Shown piece after piece: positions 45,067 to 61,846 of a stretch of DNA of 64,000 nt (positions within the stretch are counted from its first letter, which is position 1; each line of letters starts with the position of its first letter). Source of the stretch: an uncultured Maribacter sp. (GTDB taxonomy: Bacteria > Bacteroidota > Bacteroidia > Flavobacteriales > Flavobacteriaceae). The stretch covers positions 67,988 to 131,987 of the forward strand of contig CAYGPR010000004.1 in the NCBI GenBank assembly GCA_964351985.1, in the 5' to 3' direction. Position numbers and translations under genes: made by a program. The notes beneath the pieces were generated by a model, which saw only the letters and a program-made list of their open reading frames with translations, was not told where the DNA came from and searched no databases.

Positions 45067-46884
45067 ATGGGTTTAGTGACCGCAAAAGAGGTGGCCAAGG
45101 CTATCAATCTTGATAAGTATGGCTTCTTGGGCACCTTCATGTCATGGGTGCTGATGAAGGTCACTAGAATTTCAAGTATCAATTCTTTTTATGACGGAAG
45201 CAAGCATTTAGAAAAATTGGAATTCCTAGATGCGATTTTAAAACATTACGAAATCGATTTTGAAATTCCGGAAGACGATTTTAAACGCTTGCCGAAAGAA
45301 GGTCCATTTATCACAATTTCAAATCATCCCTTGGGAGGAATCGATGGAGTATTGTTATTGAAATTGCTCGTATCTCAGCGCTCTGATTTCAAAATCATCG
45401 CCAATTTTCTGTTACATCGCATAGAGCCCATGGCACCCTATATAATGCCTGTGAATCCGTTTGAAGACCGGAAAGATGTAAAAAGTAGTCTGGCCGGCTT
45501 CAAGAATGCCATGTTGCATCTGCGTGAAGGGCATCCCTTAGGTATTTTCCCTGCCGGGGAAGTTTCTACCTATAAAGACGGAAAATTAATAGTCGATAAA
45601 CCTTGGGAGGAAGCCGCACTGAAGTTGATCCGGAAGGCAGAAGTACCTGTGGTACCTATTTATTTTCATGCCAGAAACAGCAAGTTTTTCTATTGGCTTT
45701 CAAAAATGAACGACATTTTTAGAACGGCCAAATTACCCTCTGAAGTATATTCGCAAAAAAACCGACCTATAAAAGTTAGGATCGGACAGCCCATTTCGGT
45801 CGCGGCACAAAAAGAAGAGGAAACCTTGGAAGCGTTCACCGAACTTTTACGCAAAAAAACCTACATACTGGCCAATGCCTATGAAAAAGAACGCCTAATA
45901 GACCAAATTCCTACTACCCTGAAAATCCCGAAAACTCCCAGAAAAATTGCCATGGCCGTTCGTACCGAGGTCATTCAGGGAGAAATCGAAAAACTTCGTG
46001 AAAAAGACTGTCGTTTGTTGCAAAGTAAGAATTACGAAGTCTTTTTGGCACAGGCGCATGATATGCCCTTTATTTTAAAGGAAATTGGGCGACAGCGCGA
46101 GGTTACTTTCCGGGCAATAGGCGAGGGCACTAACAATTCTATAGATCTGGATATTTTCGATGAGTATTATCATCACCTGTTTCTATGGGACGATGAGGAA
46201 AAGACTATTGTAGGCGCTTATCGTATGGGTATGGGATCCGAGATTTTTGCTAAATTCGGAATCGATGGATTCTATTTACAAGACCTCTTTCGGTTCGAGC
46301 CCGAACTTTTCCCCATGATGGAAAAATCCATTGAAATGGGTAGGGCCTATATCGTCAAAGAGTACCAACAAAAACCAATGCCACTATTTTTGTTATGGAA
46401 GGGCATCGTACATACCACCCTAAGGCACCCTGAGCATAAATACTTGATAGGTGGGGTGAGTATCAGCAACCAGTTTTCGAACTTTTCTAAATCGTTGATG
46501 ATCGAGTTTATGAAATCGAACTATTGGGATCCCTATGTGGCGCAATATGTAAGACCGAAAAAAGAATTCAAGGTAAAACTTAACGATGCCGATAAGGAAT
46601 TTGTATTCGACGAGACCGAGGCAGACCTCAATAAGTTCGATCGTTTGATCAATGAAGTAGAACCAGGCGACCTTCGATTACCCGTTCTCATTAAAAAGTA
46701 TATCAAACAAAATGCGAAAGTGGTCGCTTTTAACGTGGATCCGTTATTCAACAATGCCGTCGATGGTTTGATGTACATAAAGATTGCCGATTTGCCCGAA
46801 AGTACTGTAAAACCTGTTATGGAGGAGTTTCAGGCAGAGCTTGAGCGTAAGTTTATGGAGGCCCAGGATAATGGTAGTGCTTAA
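45067..46884 (+). CDS. Bifunctional acyltransferase: N-terminal PlsC-like O-acyltransferase fused to C-terminal OlsB/GNAT-like N-acyltransferase (OlsF-like aminolipid synthase)
   Basis: HX4D motif SNHPLGGIDG plus FPAGEVS in the N-terminal half. The C-terminal half has an OlsB-like region (REVTFRAIGEGT...YRMG...YLQDLF). The architecture matches the OlsF type described in Flavobacteria. Confidence 0.6.
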   Translation: MGLVTAKEVAKAINLDKYGFLGTFMSWVLMKVTRISSINSFYDGSKHLEKLEFLDAILKHYEIDFEIPEDDFKRLPKEGPFITISNHPLGGIDGVLLLKLLVSQRSDFKIIANFLLHRIEPMAPYIMPVNPFEDRKDVKSSLAGFKNAMLHLREGHPLGIFPAGEVSTYKDGKLIVDKPWEEAALKLIRKAEVPVVPIYFHARNSKFFYWLSKMNDIFRTAKLPSEVYSQKNRPIKVRIGQPISVAAQKEEETLEAFTELLRKKTYILANAYEKERLIDQIPTTLKIPKTPRKIAMAVRTEVIQGEIEKLREKDCRLLQSKNYEVFLAQAHDMPFILKEIGRQREVTFRAIGEGTNNSIDLDIFDEYYHHLFLWDDEEKTIVGAYRMGMGSEIFAKFGIDGFYLQDLFRFEPELFPMMEKSIEMGRAYIVKEYQQKPMPLFLLWKGIVHTTLRHPEHKYLIGGVSISNQFSNFSKSLMIEFMKSNYWDPYVAQYVRPKKEFKVKLNDADKEFVFDETEADLNKFDRLINEVEPGDLRLPVLIKKYIKQNAKVVAFNVDPLFNNAVDGLMYIKIADLPESTVKPVMEEFQAELERKFMEAQDNGSA

Positions 46885-47300
46885 GAAAGTTCTCTCTCAA
46901 CGAAGTCTTCGCAAAAATCCCTAATATCGTTTCTAGCCTTTTCAAAGGCCGCATGCTTTTCTTCTTCGCTTCCCGATACTTTAGATGGGTCAAAGAAATT
47001 GTGATGAATCCGTTTAGCATTCTTTGAAGGGATGAACGGACAATTTTTTTTGGCGTGATCGCAAACGGTGATGATATAGTCCCAATCAATACCTTCGTAT
47101 TCATCAACATGGTTCGAAGTGTGAGATATTATATCGATACCATCTTCGGCCATGATGGAGACTGCACCAGGGTTAAGACCATGGGTCTCTATGCCCGCAC
47201 TATAGATTTTAGCGCTACCCTTGGCTAATCGTTCCAAATAACCATGGGCCATTTGACTTCGGCACGAGTTTCCGGTACAGAGTACGAGTATGTTTTTCAT
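46881..47300 (-). CDS. arsC: Arsenate reductase, LMW-PTPase/thioredoxin-coupled type
   Basis: CTGNSCRSQMA P-loop plus downstream cysteines (ITVCDHAKKNCP), as in the pI258/Bacillus ArsC class. Confidence 0.85.
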   Translation of the reverse strand: MKNILVLCTGNSCRSQMAHGYLERLAKGSAKIYSAGIETHGLNPGAVSIMAEDGIDIISHTSNHVDEYEGIDWDYIITVCDHAKKNCPFIPSKNAKRIHHNFFDPSKVSGSEEEKHAAFEKARNDIRDFCEDFVERELS

Positions 47301-47307
47301 GTATTTT

Positions 47308-47328
47308 GGTTAAGGGTTAAGGGTTAAG
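47308..47328. repeat. Tandem heptamer (GGTTAAG) x3
   Basis: GGTTAAGGGTTAAGGGTTAAG followed by GGGG. It fills most of the 36-nt spacer between the GNAT gene stop and the arsC start. Confidence 0.9.
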
Positions 47329-47336
47329 GGGGTTCT

Positions 47337-47843
47337 CTAAATGCCCACTACTTTACTTCGTCTTTCAAAAAGCACGTTGTCTTTCCAAATACCATCTAGT
47401 TCACCGACGCGCTCCCGCTTTCCGATACATCGAAAACCGACCTGTTCATGAAGTCTGATGCTTCCCATGTTTTCTGGGAAAATCCCTGATTGTAAGGTCC
47501 ATATTCCGTCTTTTTCGCTCTCGGCTATCAAGGTTTCCATTAATATTTTACCTACTCCCATTCCACGACTGTTTTGTCCAACGTACACGCTGACCTCTGC
47601 AACACCTCCATAGACACATCTGCTAGATACCGGCGAAAGTGCTGCCCAACCTAATATGTAGTCTTCATTTACGGCTACCAGTCTACAGGTTTTCATATGG
47701 GCCGAATCCCAAGATTCATAGGTGGGAACATTTTTTTCAAAGGTGGCAAAACCTGTTGCAATACCTTCTTTATAGATTTGTGAAACAGAGGTCCAATCTT
47801 CTGCTTGCATAGGTCGTATTGTAATGTTCACAGTTTCACTCAT
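47337..47843 (-). CDS. GNAT N-acetyltransferase of the phosphinothricin-acetyltransferase / ArsN1-like type
   Basis: PAT-like N-terminus IRPMQAEDWTSVSQIYKEGIATGFATFE and the motif RGMGVGKILMETLI. Lies inside an ars-like operon. Confidence 0.6.
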   Translation of the reverse strand: MSETVNITIRPMQAEDWTSVSQIYKEGIATGFATFEKNVPTYESWDSAHMKTCRLVAVNEDYILGWAALSPVSSRCVYGGVAEVSVYVGQNSRGMGVGKILMETLIAESEKDGIWTLQSGIFPENMGSIRLHEQVGFRCIGKRERVGELDGIWKDNVLFERRSKVVGI

Positions 47844-47844
47844 T

Positions 47845-48417
47845 CTAGCAACAAGTTATTTTTGTTCGATATGAATTCCAAATTGCACGTGGCTTTTTGA
47901 GCATCAAGATAAAATGCAATAGGGCCAATATAATTGCACCAGGAATAACATTTATACTGACGAACGTGAATATTTCGTGGGCCGCTGAAGGTGGAGTGTT
48001 ATGGACAAAAACGATACTAGACCCTATGATCTCTAATTTCAAAGCAAGCACAAGAACTATTGCGGAAAAGTGGAAGGCATTTGAAAAAAGATGAATGATA
48101 TATTCCCATCTAGGTAGCCCACCCATGAAACTTCGGCTATCTTTTTCGGAATAAGCATCTATGCCCAGTACAATTAAGTCCAAACCTACTAGCCCTAGTC
48201 CAATTAAAAACCCAACAAGACTGGTTTCGTTGATAAACAGGAACCATACGATCATGGGAAACAAAATCGCCCGAACCGTATGTGTTTTGTGCTCAAAAAT
48301 GCTTTCATCTCTATTAAAAAGTCCGAACTTGAAAATATGGAGGTAAAGACCATCATACGTCGCCAAGACCATAAAAAGTAACAGACACAACGTGGCTAAA
48401 TAGAACAATATTTCCAT
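47845..48417 (-). CDS. Uncharacterised integral membrane protein (~5-6 TM) ending in Cys-Cys
   Basis: Hydrophobic segments throughout. C-terminus ...YRTKITCC. Its stop lies 1 nt before the start of the GNAT gene. Confidence 0.6.
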   Translation of the reverse strand: MEILFYLATLCLLLFMVLATYDGLYLHIFKFGLFNRDESIFEHKTHTVRAILFPMIVWFLFINETSLVGFLIGLGLVGLDLIVLGIDAYSEKDSRSFMGGLPRWEYIIHLFSNAFHFSAIVLVLALKLEIIGSSIVFVHNTPPSAAHEIFTFVSINVIPGAIILALLHFILMLKKPRAIWNSYRTKITCC

Positions 48418-48429
48418 AATTGGTTTGGT

Positions 48430-48921
48430 TTATGAACAGCATCCACCTTCAGGTGAACAACCAGCTTCCTCATTTATATTTGCTTCAACGGGTACACCAC
48501 AGGTTTCTTTAGCCTTGCAGTCTGTTTTTTCGACTCCGAGTCTCAATAGTAATCTTTCTTCATGAACCTCAAAGTCGTTTACGAACAATTGCGCCGTGTG
48601 AAAATCGGGATTGCTATATTCGAACTTAACTTCTACCCCTTTTTCCATTGGTCTTAGTTTGTCTACTTTGTTCAAAATGCCGAATGCTTTGAAAGCGGAC
48701 ATATATTCACGCTTATCCTTCTCTTCAGGACTTTCCCATAATTGTATGATGGTCTCTTTCCAAATATCGGTTCTCGCACCACAATCGACCGAATCAATGG
48801 TCACGTTTTTAACTTCGGTAATATGATAATTTGCCCCCACAGTTTGTCCGTTTCGATACTCGAAAATGAGACTTTTATTGGGATGGTTTTTTAATAAGGA
48901 TAGAAATTCTTGTGTTTGCAT
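48430..48921 (-). CDS. DUF6428-like protein with Cys-rich C-terminus
   Basis: The core GANYHITEVKNVTIDSVDCG resembles DUF6428 as I remember it from ars loci. Tail: TDCKAKETCGVPVEANINEEAGCSPEGGCCS. Confidence 0.5.
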   Translation of the reverse strand: MQTQEFLSLLKNHPNKSLIFEYRNGQTVGANYHITEVKNVTIDSVDCGARTDIWKETIIQLWESPEEKDKREYMSAFKAFGILNKVDKLRPMEKGVEVKFEYSNPDFHTAQLFVNDFEVHEERLLLRLGVEKTDCKAKETCGVPVEANINEEAGCSPEGGCCS

Positions 48922-48932
48922 GATTCAATTAT

Positions 48933-49256
48933 TTAGCAACAGTTAAATTTTGTTTTGTTAAAAAAGGCGTTTAATAATTCTTGTATCTCCTTCCATTTGC
49001 CAAGGTTGATACAATAGCAAATTTTCTTGCCCTCGATCTCACCTTCAATGAGGTCAATACTTTTCAATTCTTTTAAATGTTGGGATATGGTAGGCTGTGC
49101 AAGCCCGATTTCTTCGACGATGTCATTACATATACAAGATGGCTGCGTACTGACATACTGTAAAATAGCAATACGGGCCGGATGAGCCAATACCTTAAAA
49201 ATCGTGGCCAGCTGGTTTTGTTTCGAATTGAATATCTGTGTTTTGGTAATTCCCAT
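48933..49256 (-). CDS. arsR: ArsR/SmtB-family metalloregulator
   Basis: wHTH segment LAHPARIAILQYV...CICNDIVEEIGLAQPTISQHLKEL. C-terminus ...KFNCC. ATG at 49256 (MGITKTQ...) preferred over the ORF-track 49346. Confidence 0.85.
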   Translation of the reverse strand: MGITKTQIFNSKQNQLATIFKVLAHPARIAILQYVSTQPSCICNDIVEEIGLAQPTISQHLKELKSIDLIEGEIEGKKICYCINLGKWKEIQELLNAFFNKTKFNCC

Positions 49257-49267
49257 CACATATTTAT

Positions 49268-49279
49268 ATATTGCAATAT
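49268..49279. promoter_or_regulatory. Candidate ArsR operator: perfect 12-bp palindrome ATATTGCAATAT
   Basis: Lies 12-23 nt upstream of the arsR ATG. ArsR/SmtB repressors usually bind dyads in their own promoters. Confidence 0.35.
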
Positions 49280-49294
49280 TACGATAATAAAAAT

Positions 49295-49328
49295 ATATAA
49301 AAAAGCTGAATCGTTGAAAATTCAGCTT
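49295..49328 (-). terminator. Rho-independent terminator of the TM2-domain gene
   Basis: The minus-strand RNA reads AAGCUGAAU-uuucaacg-AUUCAGCUU followed by UUUUAUAUAUUUUU. The 9-bp stem is at 49303-49311 / 49320-49328. Confidence 0.7.
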
Positions 49329-49336
49329 CTTGATTT

Positions 49337-49894
49337 TTAAAACCAAGGTTTTCTACCTACTTGATAAGTGTTGTAGAACTCCGCATCTGATTTTGTCAGA
49401 TATATGATACCCTCGATTAGACCGATAAGCCCTGGAATCCAGACAAAAAGTAATCCTAAGCCAAAAAAGCACATCAATACATATGAAGCTACGGTAATCC
49501 CTAGTAATATGAATCCTTCTTTTTGGTAACCCAAAATAAACTTGTGAACTCCTAACGCTCCCAATACTATGGCCAATATACCGGCCAAAATCTTTTTATT
49601 TTCTCCACCGGCCCCACCAAAGGCTTCTTTGGCACTTTCTGTAAACTCATTGGCGGTTTTCTTGGCTTCGTCGGCAAATTCACTTGCCTTTTCTTTGGCA
49701 TCTTCGGCGAATTCTTTCGTCTTTTCCTTGGCACTGTCAAAAGCGTCTTCTGCTTTATCACCAAAATCTTTGGCTTCTTCTTTGCCTTTGTCAAAGGTGT
49801 CTTCGGCCTTATCGCCTAAATTTTCAGCTTTTTTTTTGGCATTGTCCATAGCGTCTTCGGCCATGTCGTCTAAATCTTTAGTATCATCTGACAT
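49337..49894 (-). CDS. TM2-domain membrane protein with N-terminal Lys/Glu/Asp-rich amphipathic repeat region
   Basis: The C-terminal segment GILAIVLGALGVHKFILGYQKEG plus two TM helices is TM2-like. The N-terminal ~95 aa consist of about 11-residue repeats (DKAEDTFDKGKEE, DKAEDAFDSAKEK, EDAKEKASEF, DEAKKTANEF). Confidence 0.65.
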   Translation of the reverse strand: MSDDTKDLDDMAEDAMDNAKKKAENLGDKAEDTFDKGKEEAKDFGDKAEDAFDSAKEKTKEFAEDAKEKASEFADEAKKTANEFTESAKEAFGGAGGENKKILAGILAIVLGALGVHKFILGYQKEGFILLGITVASYVLMCFFGLGLLFVWIPGLIGLIEGIIYLTKSDAEFYNTYQVGRKPWF

Positions 49895-60514: not shown

Positions 60515-61846
60515 TTAGAGATGACTTTTGTCTTTAAGTTGAGATGGCAAAATCCATTCGTGGTGGGTAAAATGTTGCCATGGGGTGTTGGCCAAATCAA
60601 TTTCAGGATTGATGAAAGTGCGCAAAGGCCTACCGTTAACGCTTATTTTCGAGTTCACGAATACGGAAACATCCTGCCCTTTTATAGTATATTCCTTTTT
60701 TAAACGTTGTGCGAATTGCCAAATAAAGTCTGGATAGGCCGCTATTCTTCTTTTTTGTTTTTTGGTGAGATAGTCATCAAGGTCAACAATTTTTGAAACG
60801 CCTGTCTTAATGTCCAAAACAGTAAAATCAATATTCCCGGCACGGCTTCGCAGCATCATGCGCCAGCTGAGGCGATGTCCCTCTTCCGTCCACAAAACTT
60901 CGTCTTTTAAAAAATGTTGCCGAAGCGGCAAGGCGAATTGAATCAGAAAATAAACTCCACCTAACCCCAGTATGACATTTTTGTAAGATGGAACTTGAAT
61001 TTCACCACCCGCGTAGGGTTCTTTTTTCTTGAAGAATATCTTCCTGATAACTTCAGGCTCGAAAAAGAACACCGTGAAGGCCAATGACAAATAGGGGAAT
61101 ATTCCGATTTGAAAAACTATCGAATTGAAAAGATGGAAAAAAATGGAAATGACAAAAGCGACCTTACGGGTCGGTTTCCATAATAATGCCGGAATAATTA
61201 GAAAATCGAATAAAATTCCAAAGATACCAACGACTTTATGAACCCATGCCTCTTGCAGCAAAACACCGATAATAGGGTAATCTGCCTTATCGAGCATTAA
61301 TATCCTAACGATGCCGAAATCAAGCCAGTCACCATATAATTTGGCTATCGAGGCGTACGTGTAGACGATAAAAAGTTGCAAGACAACGGCCCATTTAACA
61401 TAGCTATGCATATAATCGTGCCGCAATGCCGGATTTTGTCTTGTATCTAGGGAATAGCCTCGATTTGCGGGAAAAAAGCACATGAACAACGAAATCAATA
61501 TCAATAGATAATAATGATTGTTGTACGATGATTTCTGCATCAGGTAAACGGCGGTCCATAATATCGTGAACGAGATAATACTGAACCTGTATTTGTATCC
61601 GAGGGCGATACAGACCCCTAAGGTACCCATAATGAAAAAATAGAAGTACATGCCATTTCCAGGAAGCGGCTGTAACCATTCAAAACCGATAAAGGAGAAT
61701 GTGAATTGCGGTTCTACCAAGGTTCTTCTGATCCAACCCGTTACGATGGCACCGTAGCATTCTAGGGCCACCAATATTCCGAAGAAAATCCTGAAAATCA
61801 ATAAGGGTGAGTTATCGATTTTTGTAAAAAGAAAACGATTCAGCAT
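60515..61846 (-). CDS. HTTM-domain (vitamin K-dependent gamma-carboxylase-like) integral membrane protein
   Basis: The N-terminus IDNSPLLIFRIFFGILVALECYGAI...FTFSFIGFEWLQPLP is typical of HTTM. Multiple TM segments plus a C-terminal soluble part. The ATG at 61846 overlaps the ribF TGA (TGATG). Confidence 0.8.
   Translation of the reverse strand: MLNRFLFTKIDNSPLLIFRIFFGILVALECYGAIVTGWIRRTLVEPQFTFSFIGFEWLQPLPGNGMYFYFFIMGTLGVCIALGYKYRFSIISFTILWTAVYLMQKSSYNNHYYLLILISLFMCFFPANRGYSLDTRQNPALRHDYMHSYVKWAVVLQLFIVYTYASIAKLYGDWLDFGIVRILMLDKADYPIIGVLLQEAWVHKVVGIFGILFDFLIIPALLWKPTRKVAFVISIFFHLFNSIVFQIGIFPYLSLAFTVFFFEPEVIRKIFFKKKEPYAGGEIQVPSYKNVILGLGGVYFLIQFALPLRQHFLKDEVLWTEEGHRLSWRMMLRSRAGNIDFTVLDIKTGVSKIVDLDDYLTKKQKRRIAAYPDFIWQFAQRLKKEYTIKGQDVSVFVNSKISVNGRPLRTFINPEIDLANTPWQHFTHHEWILPSQLKDKSHL

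Follow-up and report, generated by a model that had tools for sequence, protein, structure and literature searches.

One of the closest described counterparts of the locus analysed here is the ArarsRMC operon of Arsenicibacter rosenii SM-1, a member of the Bacteroidota, whose repressor ArArsR carries cysteines at positions 41, 43, 80, 82, 107 and 108, binds As(III) through Cys41/80/82 and takes As(III), as well as methylarsenite (MAs(III)), as inducers (Zhang et al., mLife 2025, PMC11868830). The single mutants C43S, C107S and C108S respond as the wild type, the site defined by DNase I footprinting and electrophoretic mobility shift assay is TTTTATCGTAATATTGCGATCACAATC, and the Flavobacteriaceae are named as holders of this type of repressor (PMC11868830). 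Operons of the arsNCR type in another genus of the Bacteroidetes, Mucilaginibacter, combine arsR, arsN and arsC; acr3 and arsMCR are given alongside, arsNCR and acr3 being listed separately among the putative ars operons (PMC6316836). Here we describe a related operon from an uncultured Maribacter sp. (contig CAYGPR010000004.1), located on the minus strand of a 64-kb window, by which we mean the whole stretch of 64,000 nucleotides that was analysed. Its five closely packed genes are, in order, arsR, a DUF6428 gene, a gene for a membrane protein of 190 amino acids (aa) that we name MEM for convenience, an arsN1-like acetyltransferase gene and arsC. This is the order that an earlier note on the same DNA had proposed, and the positions of the open reading frames (ORFs) and their Pfam and NCBIfam assignments bear it out. 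The locus represents the form that a Bacteroidota arsenic-response operon, arsR-DUF6428-(MEM)-arsN1-arsC, takes in marine Flavobacteriaceae, and it has no efflux pump of its own. Where ArarsRMC has arsM-arsC as structural genes, the window operon has DUF6428-MEM-arsN1-arsC; the ArArsR paper is silent on DUF6428, on MEM and on the reason for a conserved but dispensable C-terminal Cys-Cys (CC) tail (PMC11868830), and the Mucilaginibacter arsNCR reports describe neither DUF6428 nor MEM (PMC6316836).

Sequence comparison strongly supports the assignment of the window ArsR to the published ArArsR type of As(III)/MAs(III)-responsive repressors. Its reading frame starts at the ATG at 49256 and not at the TTG at 49346, its NF033788 score passes the cut-off of 55 bits and, with PF01022, identifies an ArsR/SmtB winged-helix protein, and its six cysteines (41, 43, 80, 82, 106 and 107) follow the pattern of ArArsR. 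In 35 sequences C41, C82, C106 and C107 are invariant (35/35), C43 is found in 32/35 and C80 in 31/35. By homology with the characterised ArArsR, there is strong support for a repressor that would leave its site upon binding of As(III) or MAs(III) to Cys41/80/82. A C-terminal sensing site of the Acidithiobacillus type, which the earlier note had cited as a parallel, is rejected for the ArsR CC pair, since mutagenesis of the orthologue identifies Cys41/80/82 as the As(III) site and both C107S and C108S are still responsive (PMC11868830).

The operator proposed for this repressor also stood up to comparison. The 12-bp palindrome ATATTGCAATAT at 49279..49268 makes up the core of the ArArsR footprint (PMC11868830), the window counterpart of the whole footprint being TTATTATCGTAATATTGCAATATATAA at 49290..49264, and it lies within an 18-nt motif, ATCGTAATATTGCAATAT (49285..49268), that is nearly invariant 5' of arsR in ~92/95 loci. 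The match to the footprint and this conservation together indicate a real operator with the palindrome at its core. The 18-nt motif covers one arm and half of the other of a 24-bp dyad with the halves ATCGTAATATTG and CAATATTACGAT, which occurs as a perfect palindrome in four loci (L019, L024, L030 and L114). A dyad of the ATCGTAATATTGCGAT type is thus present in the arsR promoter at 49285..49268 as a predicted binding site, and the operators of the ArArsR system and the window are near-identical (ATCGTAATATTGCGAT and ATCGTAATATTGCAAT, respectively; PMC11868830). The conserved dyad overlaps the promoter. Within the operator, TAATATTG resembles what we take to be the Bacteroidetes −7 box, TAnnTTTG.

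Three consecutive products of the operon end in vicinal cysteines: ArsR in KFNCC, DUF6428 in GGCCS and MEM in KITCC. The terminal codons are exactly as had been claimed (AAC TGT TGC TAA for ArsR, TGC TGT TCA TAA for DUF6428 and ACT TGT TGC TAG for MEM). The window has 70 ORFs with a length of 100 aa or more (21,740 aa, 1.03% Cys); they contain only four Cys-Cys dipeptides and three of these four are the tails in question, so a chance origin is excluded. The earlier note had asked whether the pairs are conserved in homologs, and they are: C106/C107 of ArsR in 35/35 sequences, C161/C162 of DUF6428 in 34/34 operon neighbours, and the terminal CC in 117/120 DUF6428 homologs (119/120 when CC anywhere among the last four residues is counted) and in 120/120 close homologs of MEM (63–94% identity). 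The alignments therefore strongly support the C-terminal Cys-Cys pairs of ArsR, DUF6428 and MEM as conserved features.

To place the tails in their genomic context two samples of loci were used, 51 genome loci collected through MEM, all from Bacteroidota, and 80 marine metagenome loci collected through DUF6428. ArsR and DUF6428 keep their CC in all but one or two of the 80 DUF6428-sampled loci, only 11 of which contain MEM, and MEM keeps its tail at loci without ars genes; comparison of these sequences strongly supports independent conservation of the three tails. In the wider MEM family most members lack a C-terminal CC. Among 125 divergent representatives (24–46% identity), 12 have CC in the last 14 residues, where ~0.1 would be expected by chance, and 3 have it anywhere else, so the CC tail is a recurrent accessory module of the family. 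In the Bacteroidota loci the tail tracks the presence of ars neighbours: of the 51 MEM loci, 35 have both, 8 have the tail without ars genes, 6 have neither and 2 have ars genes without the tail, in a sample whose loci are not phylogenetically independent. In two distant lineages a CC-tailed MEM accompanies an ArsR-family gene that itself has CC near its C-terminus: L142, a lineage with 49% identity and the order arsR(CC)-GNAT-MEM(CC), and L052.

The second of these belongs to a high-GC lineage. Its MEM homolog, which has 32% identity and a CC tail, overlaps a polytopic membrane protein of 281 aa that has no Pfam match (L052:6537-7382 and L052:7379-7747), followed by the ArsR-family gene with the sequence AAICCPP, and this gene set may be a separate metalloid module. 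Cys-Cys pairs also occur in two other kinds of protein. In operons of the same type (L004:11094-11462 and L017, cluster c33), an unrelated membrane protein of ~122 aa, without a Pfam match and with Cys-Cys near its C-terminus (ERLNCCEKSSVHS), is encoded between arsN1 and a 208-aa LMWP gene. At L043:6724-7263 and in L047 (cluster c56), inside ars gene islands, a sigma factor of the ECF type (Sigma70_r2, r4_2) carries a C-terminal extension with two Cys-Cys pairs (ECCDFEFDRYGNIVSCCGGD).

The distribution of MEM speaks against an obligatory set of three CC proteins. About 33 of the 51 MEM loci occupy a syntenic place in the chromosome and read arsR-DUF6428-MEM-arsN1, with arsC or a 208-aa LMWP-like gene next; in ~13 a Crp/Fnr-like regulator stands directly upstream of MEM, and some MEM genes are solitary. 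Genes of the ars type lie within 5 kb of MEM in 37/51 genome loci (35 CC-tailed, 2 not) and include ArsM (L029, L048), Acr3 (L038, L041, L043) and MIP (L026, L047, L048). The commonest operon in the DUF6428-based sample is arsR-DUF6428-arsN1-(arsC), from which MEM is absent, and at least 19 gains or losses are required to explain where MEM directly follows DUF6428 on a neighbour-joining tree built from 100 DUF6428 sequences. One further MEM copy (L105:1687-2265) carries H109R and H168R and a frameshifted tail from which CC has been lost; it looks like a decaying gene, in keeping with frequent loss of MEM. These gains and losses and the decaying copy strongly support the view of MEM as an accessory cassette that has been inserted, in a minority of the operons, between DUF6428 and arsN1 and has often been lost. 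The triad as originally envisaged therefore does not hold, because ArsR and DUF6428 retain CC without MEM and MEM retains it without ars genes.

The regulator paired with MEM is a Crp/Fnr-family protein of ~192 aa (PF00027), found at MEM loci without arsR-DUF6428 and separated from MEM by 4–163 nt (L025, L027, L033-L035, L039, L041, L043, L045-L047, L051 and L140). Its effector domain contains three conserved cysteines (a Cys and a C-F-C motif) in 13–14 of 15 sequences, and it could sense metalloids or redox stress by way of thiols.

The observation that no efflux pump is visible was upheld. Neither Acr3 nor ArsB is found among seven scanned membrane-protein ORFs of the window, six of which encode an SSF symporter, a ureide-permease-like protein, MgtE, HTTM, DUF4199 and TM2-domain proteins and the seventh a 261-aa protein with six transmembrane (TM) segments and no family match, and there is no Acr3 within ±6 kb in any of the 80 DUF6428-sampled metagenome loci. 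The pump-less state is a conserved property of this operon type. It had further been proposed that MEM could stand in for, or feed, the missing pump. As a strict substitute this fails, since most pump-less operons have no MEM and MEM is found beside a true Acr3: in L038 the order is arsR-DUF6428-LMWP-Acr3-MEM, with MEM directly downstream of a 350-aa Acr3 (PF01758, 1.4e-55), and of two further loci that hold Acr3, L041 and L043, the former has MEM near it.

The DUF6428 protein is the constant partner of the repressor. It matches PF20001 with 164.7 bits (cut-off 28.7) over the full model (1–155), belongs to a large family (at least 8,000 database matches) and follows arsR at every locus examined, ~110 Bacteroidota operons. 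Invariant features are H33-x-T35-E36, D46-C47-G48, Q60-L-W-E63, E101, C135, C155 and C161-C162. The AlphaFold model has an alpha/beta core (1–135, pLDDT >90) and a disordered tail (136–163, pLDDT <50); the Cys-rich tail region comprises C135, C141, C155, C161 and C162, with four conserved cysteines within 136–163. Foldseek finds no fold neighbour in the Protein Data Bank (PDB), the best matches (E = 0.09, TM <0.25), to SSB-like OB-folds, being noise, and a profile search of PDB sequences gave no relative (one match, E = 0.061). Membership of the ArsD family was rejected, PF20001 being the sole Pfam match and the PDB offering no fold or sequence neighbour. As had been stated beforehand, neither middle protein has a characterised function: literature searches returned no paper that mentions DUF6428 and none that describes MEM. 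Since DUF6428 is soluble, is encoded directly after arsR and has a flexible tail with several cysteines, it is most simply read, by analogy, as a cytosolic protein that binds or chaperones trivalent arsenicals.

MEM belongs to a family of proteins of ~180–195 aa; 645 close homologs were counted, and clustering at 50% identity gave 273 representative clusters. It has no match in Pfam or NCBIfam; 70 divergent members searched against Pfam at E up to 1 gave scattered single matches and no consistent family, a MEM profile gave 0 matches among PDB sequences, and Foldseek found no PDB neighbour of the AlphaFold model (best E = 3.1). The model itself is confident (pLDDT 94.7, pTM 0.89), with helices at 2–30, 37–62, 67–94, 103–127 and 145–170 and an amphipathic C-terminal helix (174–188) that ends in KITCC. 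An N-out/C-in topology is predicted from the hydrophobic cores and from the placement of Lys and Arg, of which 12 fall in loop 1, loop 3 and the C-terminal tail and one on the other side. Invariant or nearly so throughout the family are D22, H27, E42, H43, H46, D87, E91, R95, G100, E105, H109 and H168, and the predicted topology places all the invariant polar residues at the cytoplasmic ends of helices, on the side of the CC tail. From this arrangement we infer a candidate metal or catalytic site in MEM that would face the cytoplasm.

Several known families were considered for MEM. Acr3/ArsB is rejected by the lack of a PF01758 or PF02040 domain and by the five TM segments, and MerT/MerC/MerF/MerE and ArsP by the absence of Pfam matches for MEM and of a consistent Pfam family among the 70 diverse members at E up to 1. 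Resemblances to ICMT (5 TM, ~190 aa), CPBP/CAAX proteases (ExxxR, HxxxN), PAP2, CDF/ZIP/NiCoT transporters, membrane desaturases and b-type cytochromes found no tool support and are not claimed.

Taken together, these observations suggest the following mechanism, to which as a whole we assign a probability of about 0.45, that is, somewhat below even. The CC at the end of each C-terminal tail would be a two-thiol capture arm for trivalent arsenicals; it is disordered in the DUF6428 model and follows an amphipathic helix in the MEM model. DUF6428, with its folded core and a tail with four to five invariant cysteines, would buffer or chaperone As(III)/MAs(III) in the cytosol. MEM would be an enzyme that is embedded in the membrane and probably needs a metal (a small exporter being less likely), and its His/Asp/Glu cluster at the cytoplasmic face may act on an arsenical presented by its own CC arm. 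ArsN1 would acetylate arsinothricin-like amino-acid arsenicals, ArsC would reduce arsenate, and arsenite would leave through a transporter encoded elsewhere in the genome.

Several points weigh against this mechanism. Eight of the 43 CC-tailed MEM loci have no nearby ars gene. Most wider-family members of MEM have no cysteines, and their neighbours are heterogeneous (hemerythrin, TauD, an FAD oxidoreductase or none), so the core activity of MEM may be unrelated to arsenic; the distant contexts also include two-component system, Crp-like and ArsR-like genes and are too mixed for a function to be read from them, and apart from L142 and L052 they have no link to arsenic. Metal binding by the His/Asp/Glu cluster is suggested by its conservation pattern, and the functions proposed for DUF6428 and MEM derive from neither experiment nor homology. 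The CC tail of ArsR has no demonstrated role, single Cys-to-Ser mutants being wild-type-like (PMC11868830).

The position of MEM raises the possibility that its partner is the adjacent acetyltransferase, MEM being a small permease or an export component for arsinothricin-like compounds or their N-acetylated products, or a membrane enzyme of the same pathway, with its CC tail as a regulatory or arsenical-sensing addition. The two genes are only 1 nt apart, MEM adjoins arsN1 in ~30 loci, the order in L026 is arsR-arsN1-MEM-DUF6428, and the 49%-identical lineage of L142 places a GNAT gene between arsR(CC) and MEM(CC). However, that GNAT is not ArsN1-like by phmmer, and MEM occurs without any GNAT in L018, L019, L024, L030, L038 and the Crp-MEM pairs. 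Moreover, a protein of five TM segments with a face-exposed cluster of His and carboxylates would be atypical for a permease, and arsinothricin is pentavalent and would not need thiols. We regard this explanation as distinctly unlikely.

Just as improbable in our estimate is a role of the CC tails in redox or thiol stress, as vicinal disulfide switches or sacrificial thiols, with MEM as a general membrane-homeostasis protein co-regulated with responses to thiol-reactive stress and arsenic as one of several inducers. The solitary MEM genes, those behind Crp/Fnr-like regulators with three conserved cysteines (C…CFC), the 8 CC-tailed loci without ars neighbours and the redox enzymes that adjoin distant homologs are all consistent with it, as is the fact that arsenic sensing does not need the ArsR CC (PMC11868830). 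The context of the tails argues the other way: 35/43 CC-tailed MEM loci have ars neighbours against 2/8 untailed ones, although these loci are not phylogenetically independent, and DUF6428 stands behind arsR in all of the ~110 loci.

That the three tails form an obligatory metalloid relay (from ArsR to DUF6428 to MEM), with MEM as the arsenite exporter replacing Acr3/ArsB, is very improbable: three successive conserved tails, the lack of a pump among the scanned window ORFs or within ±6 kb of 80 related operons, a mid-membrane acidic residue of MEM (D80, conserved 83% across the family) and the subfamily-conserved N113, H116 and N156 of TM4-5, which with D80 could line a translocation path, all favour it, but MEM is missing from most pump-less operons of this type, was gained or lost at least 19 times and lies beside Acr3 in L038 and L041, the ArsR CC is dispensable for sensing (PMC11868830), and the wider-family invariants are hard ligands at the membrane face, not pore thiols, in a family most of whose members are Cys-free.

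The last two genes of the operon were assigned by comparison with known families. The GNAT protein has its best match in NF040503 (ArsN1 family A), at 134.7 bits against a cut-off of 170, and is for this reason named ArsN1-like only; ArsN1b and PAT score 80.7 and 56.4. Pfam (PF00583 and PF13420) identifies the GNAT fold of the PAT family, and the PDB matches are likewise PAT-family proteins, including 5jtf/5wph/6m7g, deposited as phosphinothricin N-acetyltransferase, which we take to be PpArsN1. ArsC has Cys8 in the CX5R loop (CTGNSCRS), Cys80 and Cys87, the equivalents of Cys10/82/89; its best PDB match is Bacillus subtilis ArsC (1JL3, E = 3.1e-33), and TIGR02691 gives 138.5 bits, under the cut-off of 174.3. 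At L002:11083-11712 and ~20 other loci, a protein of ~208 aa with a weak LMWPc match only (E = 8.6e-4, below threshold) takes the place of the 139-aa ArsC; it may represent a diverged form of arsenate reductase that is typical of ars operons in Bacteroidota. In Maribacter halichondriae (L001:11110-11530), the nearest relative with a sequence, arsC is broken into two ORFs that overlap, of 119 and 106 aa, which suggests a frameshift or pseudogene.

The coordinates of the operon and its control elements are collected in Table 1. The terminator of the preceding TM2-domain gene marks the ars genes as a transcription unit of their own, and a comparable hairpin and T run is found 5' of arsR in most related loci. 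The intergenic gaps from arsR to arsC are 11, 12, 1 and 36 nt, the start codon of the arsN1-like gene lying 1 nt past the MEM stop codon and the heptamer repeat occupying most of the arsN1-arsC spacer; the 3' end of arsC shares 4 nt with a convergent acyltransferase gene. The nearest relatives of the operon proteins come from Maribacter species, MEM being 94% identical to a protein of M. halichondriae.

Table 1. Features of the ars locus and their positions in the 64-kb window.
Feature	Position	Strand	Description
Sigma-70-like hexamer pair	49320..49292	-	Promoter candidate
Intrinsic terminator of the upstream TM2-domain gene	49300..49331	-	13-pair hairpin, then T run
Promoter/operator region	49264..49297	-	Conserved motif and homology to ArArsR site
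arsR	48933..49256	-	107 aa; PF01022 4.5e-11; NF033788 69.7 bits
DUF6428 gene	48430..48921	-	163 aa; PF20001 E = 1.8e-48
MEM gene	47845..48417	-	190 aa; 5 TM segments predicted by hydropathy
ArsN1-like GNAT gene	47337..47843	-	PAT-family; NF040503 best match
(CCCTTAA)x3 tandem heptamer	47310..47330	-	Direct reading of sequence
arsC, thioredoxin-type LMWP	46881..47300	-	PF01451 2.7e-19

Two other genes of the window were noted. The gene upstream of the operon (49337-49894, minus strand) encodes the TM2-domain membrane protein, whose N-terminal region is long, has many Asp, Glu and Lys residues and resembles apolipoprotein/YtxH repeats; in most Maribacter-like genomes this gene and the operon occur in synteny. 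At 60515-61846 (minus strand), HTTM and the lumenal domain of vitamin-K-dependent gamma-carboxylase are joined in one bacterial protein (PF05090 at 3.3e-74, PF22777 at 6e-50).

The repressor type and its operator are thus known biology, and it is DUF6428 and MEM that appear to be candidate new ars genes. Both are uncharacterised, arsenic-linked families with confidently modelled folds that have no PDB relative, and the MEM subfamily tied to ars clusters has neither a Pfam entry nor a PDB neighbour. Earlier new ars genes (arsI, arsP, arsH, arsJ, arsN) repeatedly opened new arsenic biochemistry. The pump-less arsR-DUF6428-arsN1-arsC operon is widespread in marine Flavobacteriaceae, bacteria that break down algal biomass rich in arsenic, and may therefore be relevant to organoarsenic cycling in the sea. 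A further question posed by the data is why a C-terminal Cys-Cys that is dispensable for sensing stays invariant in this ArsR type. A bolder idea, which we consider unlikely, is that DUF6428 and MEM are two new arsenic-resistance families, each combining a hard-ligand (His/carboxylate) site with a flexible C-terminal vicinal-dithiol arm for the capture of trivalent (organo)arsenicals, so that the principle of ArsI and MerA would have been reinvented twice. If so, MEM would be the first arsenical-transforming enzyme embedded in a membrane, or else a minimal exporter of arsenicals that is new; DUF6428 would play in Bacteroidota the part of the ArsD chaperone; and the two together would account for the protection of marine Flavobacteriaceae by pump-less arsR-DUF6428-arsN1-arsC operons. 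The locus is a testable lead to new ars genes and not a demonstrated new mechanism.

Known systems offer partial parallels to both middle proteins. ArsD proteins have a thioredoxin-like fold and are rich in vicinal cysteines, some of which, in the C-terminal region, are dispensable. Like DUF6428, ArsD of arsRDABC is small, soluble and encoded directly after arsR, and it binds As(III) and passes it to a partner (PMC6205960). The two share no sequence or fold similarity, so the likeness of DUF6428 to ArsD would be one of analogy; no ArsA partner was seen among the genes scanned at these loci, in which no search was aimed at ArsA. The usual membrane proteins of ars operons, Acr3 and ArsB, have roughly 350–430 aa and 10–12 TM segments. 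MEM holds a similar position in the gene order but, unlike them, has 190 aa, 5 TM segments and no SBF or ArsB domain, and co-occurs with a true Acr3 in L038.

The closest design analogue for a relay of CC tails is found in the Mer proteins, where a flexible or cytoplasmic Cys-Cys, in MerT/MerF/MerC and in the C-terminal arm of MerA, picks up a soft metal and passes it on. These proteins handle mercury, not arsenic; MEM has no Pfam match, the Mer transporter families included, and the core of its family, unlike the Mer transporters, is rich in His/Asp/Glu and mostly Cys-free. In the C-As lyase ArsI and the methylarsenite permease ArsP a vicinal Cys pair binds trivalent organoarsenicals, and ArsI adds a His/His/Glu Fe(II) site to this pair. 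ArsI is a soluble protein of the glyoxalase fold and ArsP a larger multi-TM permease with the Cys pair inside a TM helix, and neither is homologous to MEM or DUF6428. The logic of ArsI, a thiol arm joined to a hard-ligand metal site, is by analogy the one that we propose for MEM and possibly for DUF6428.

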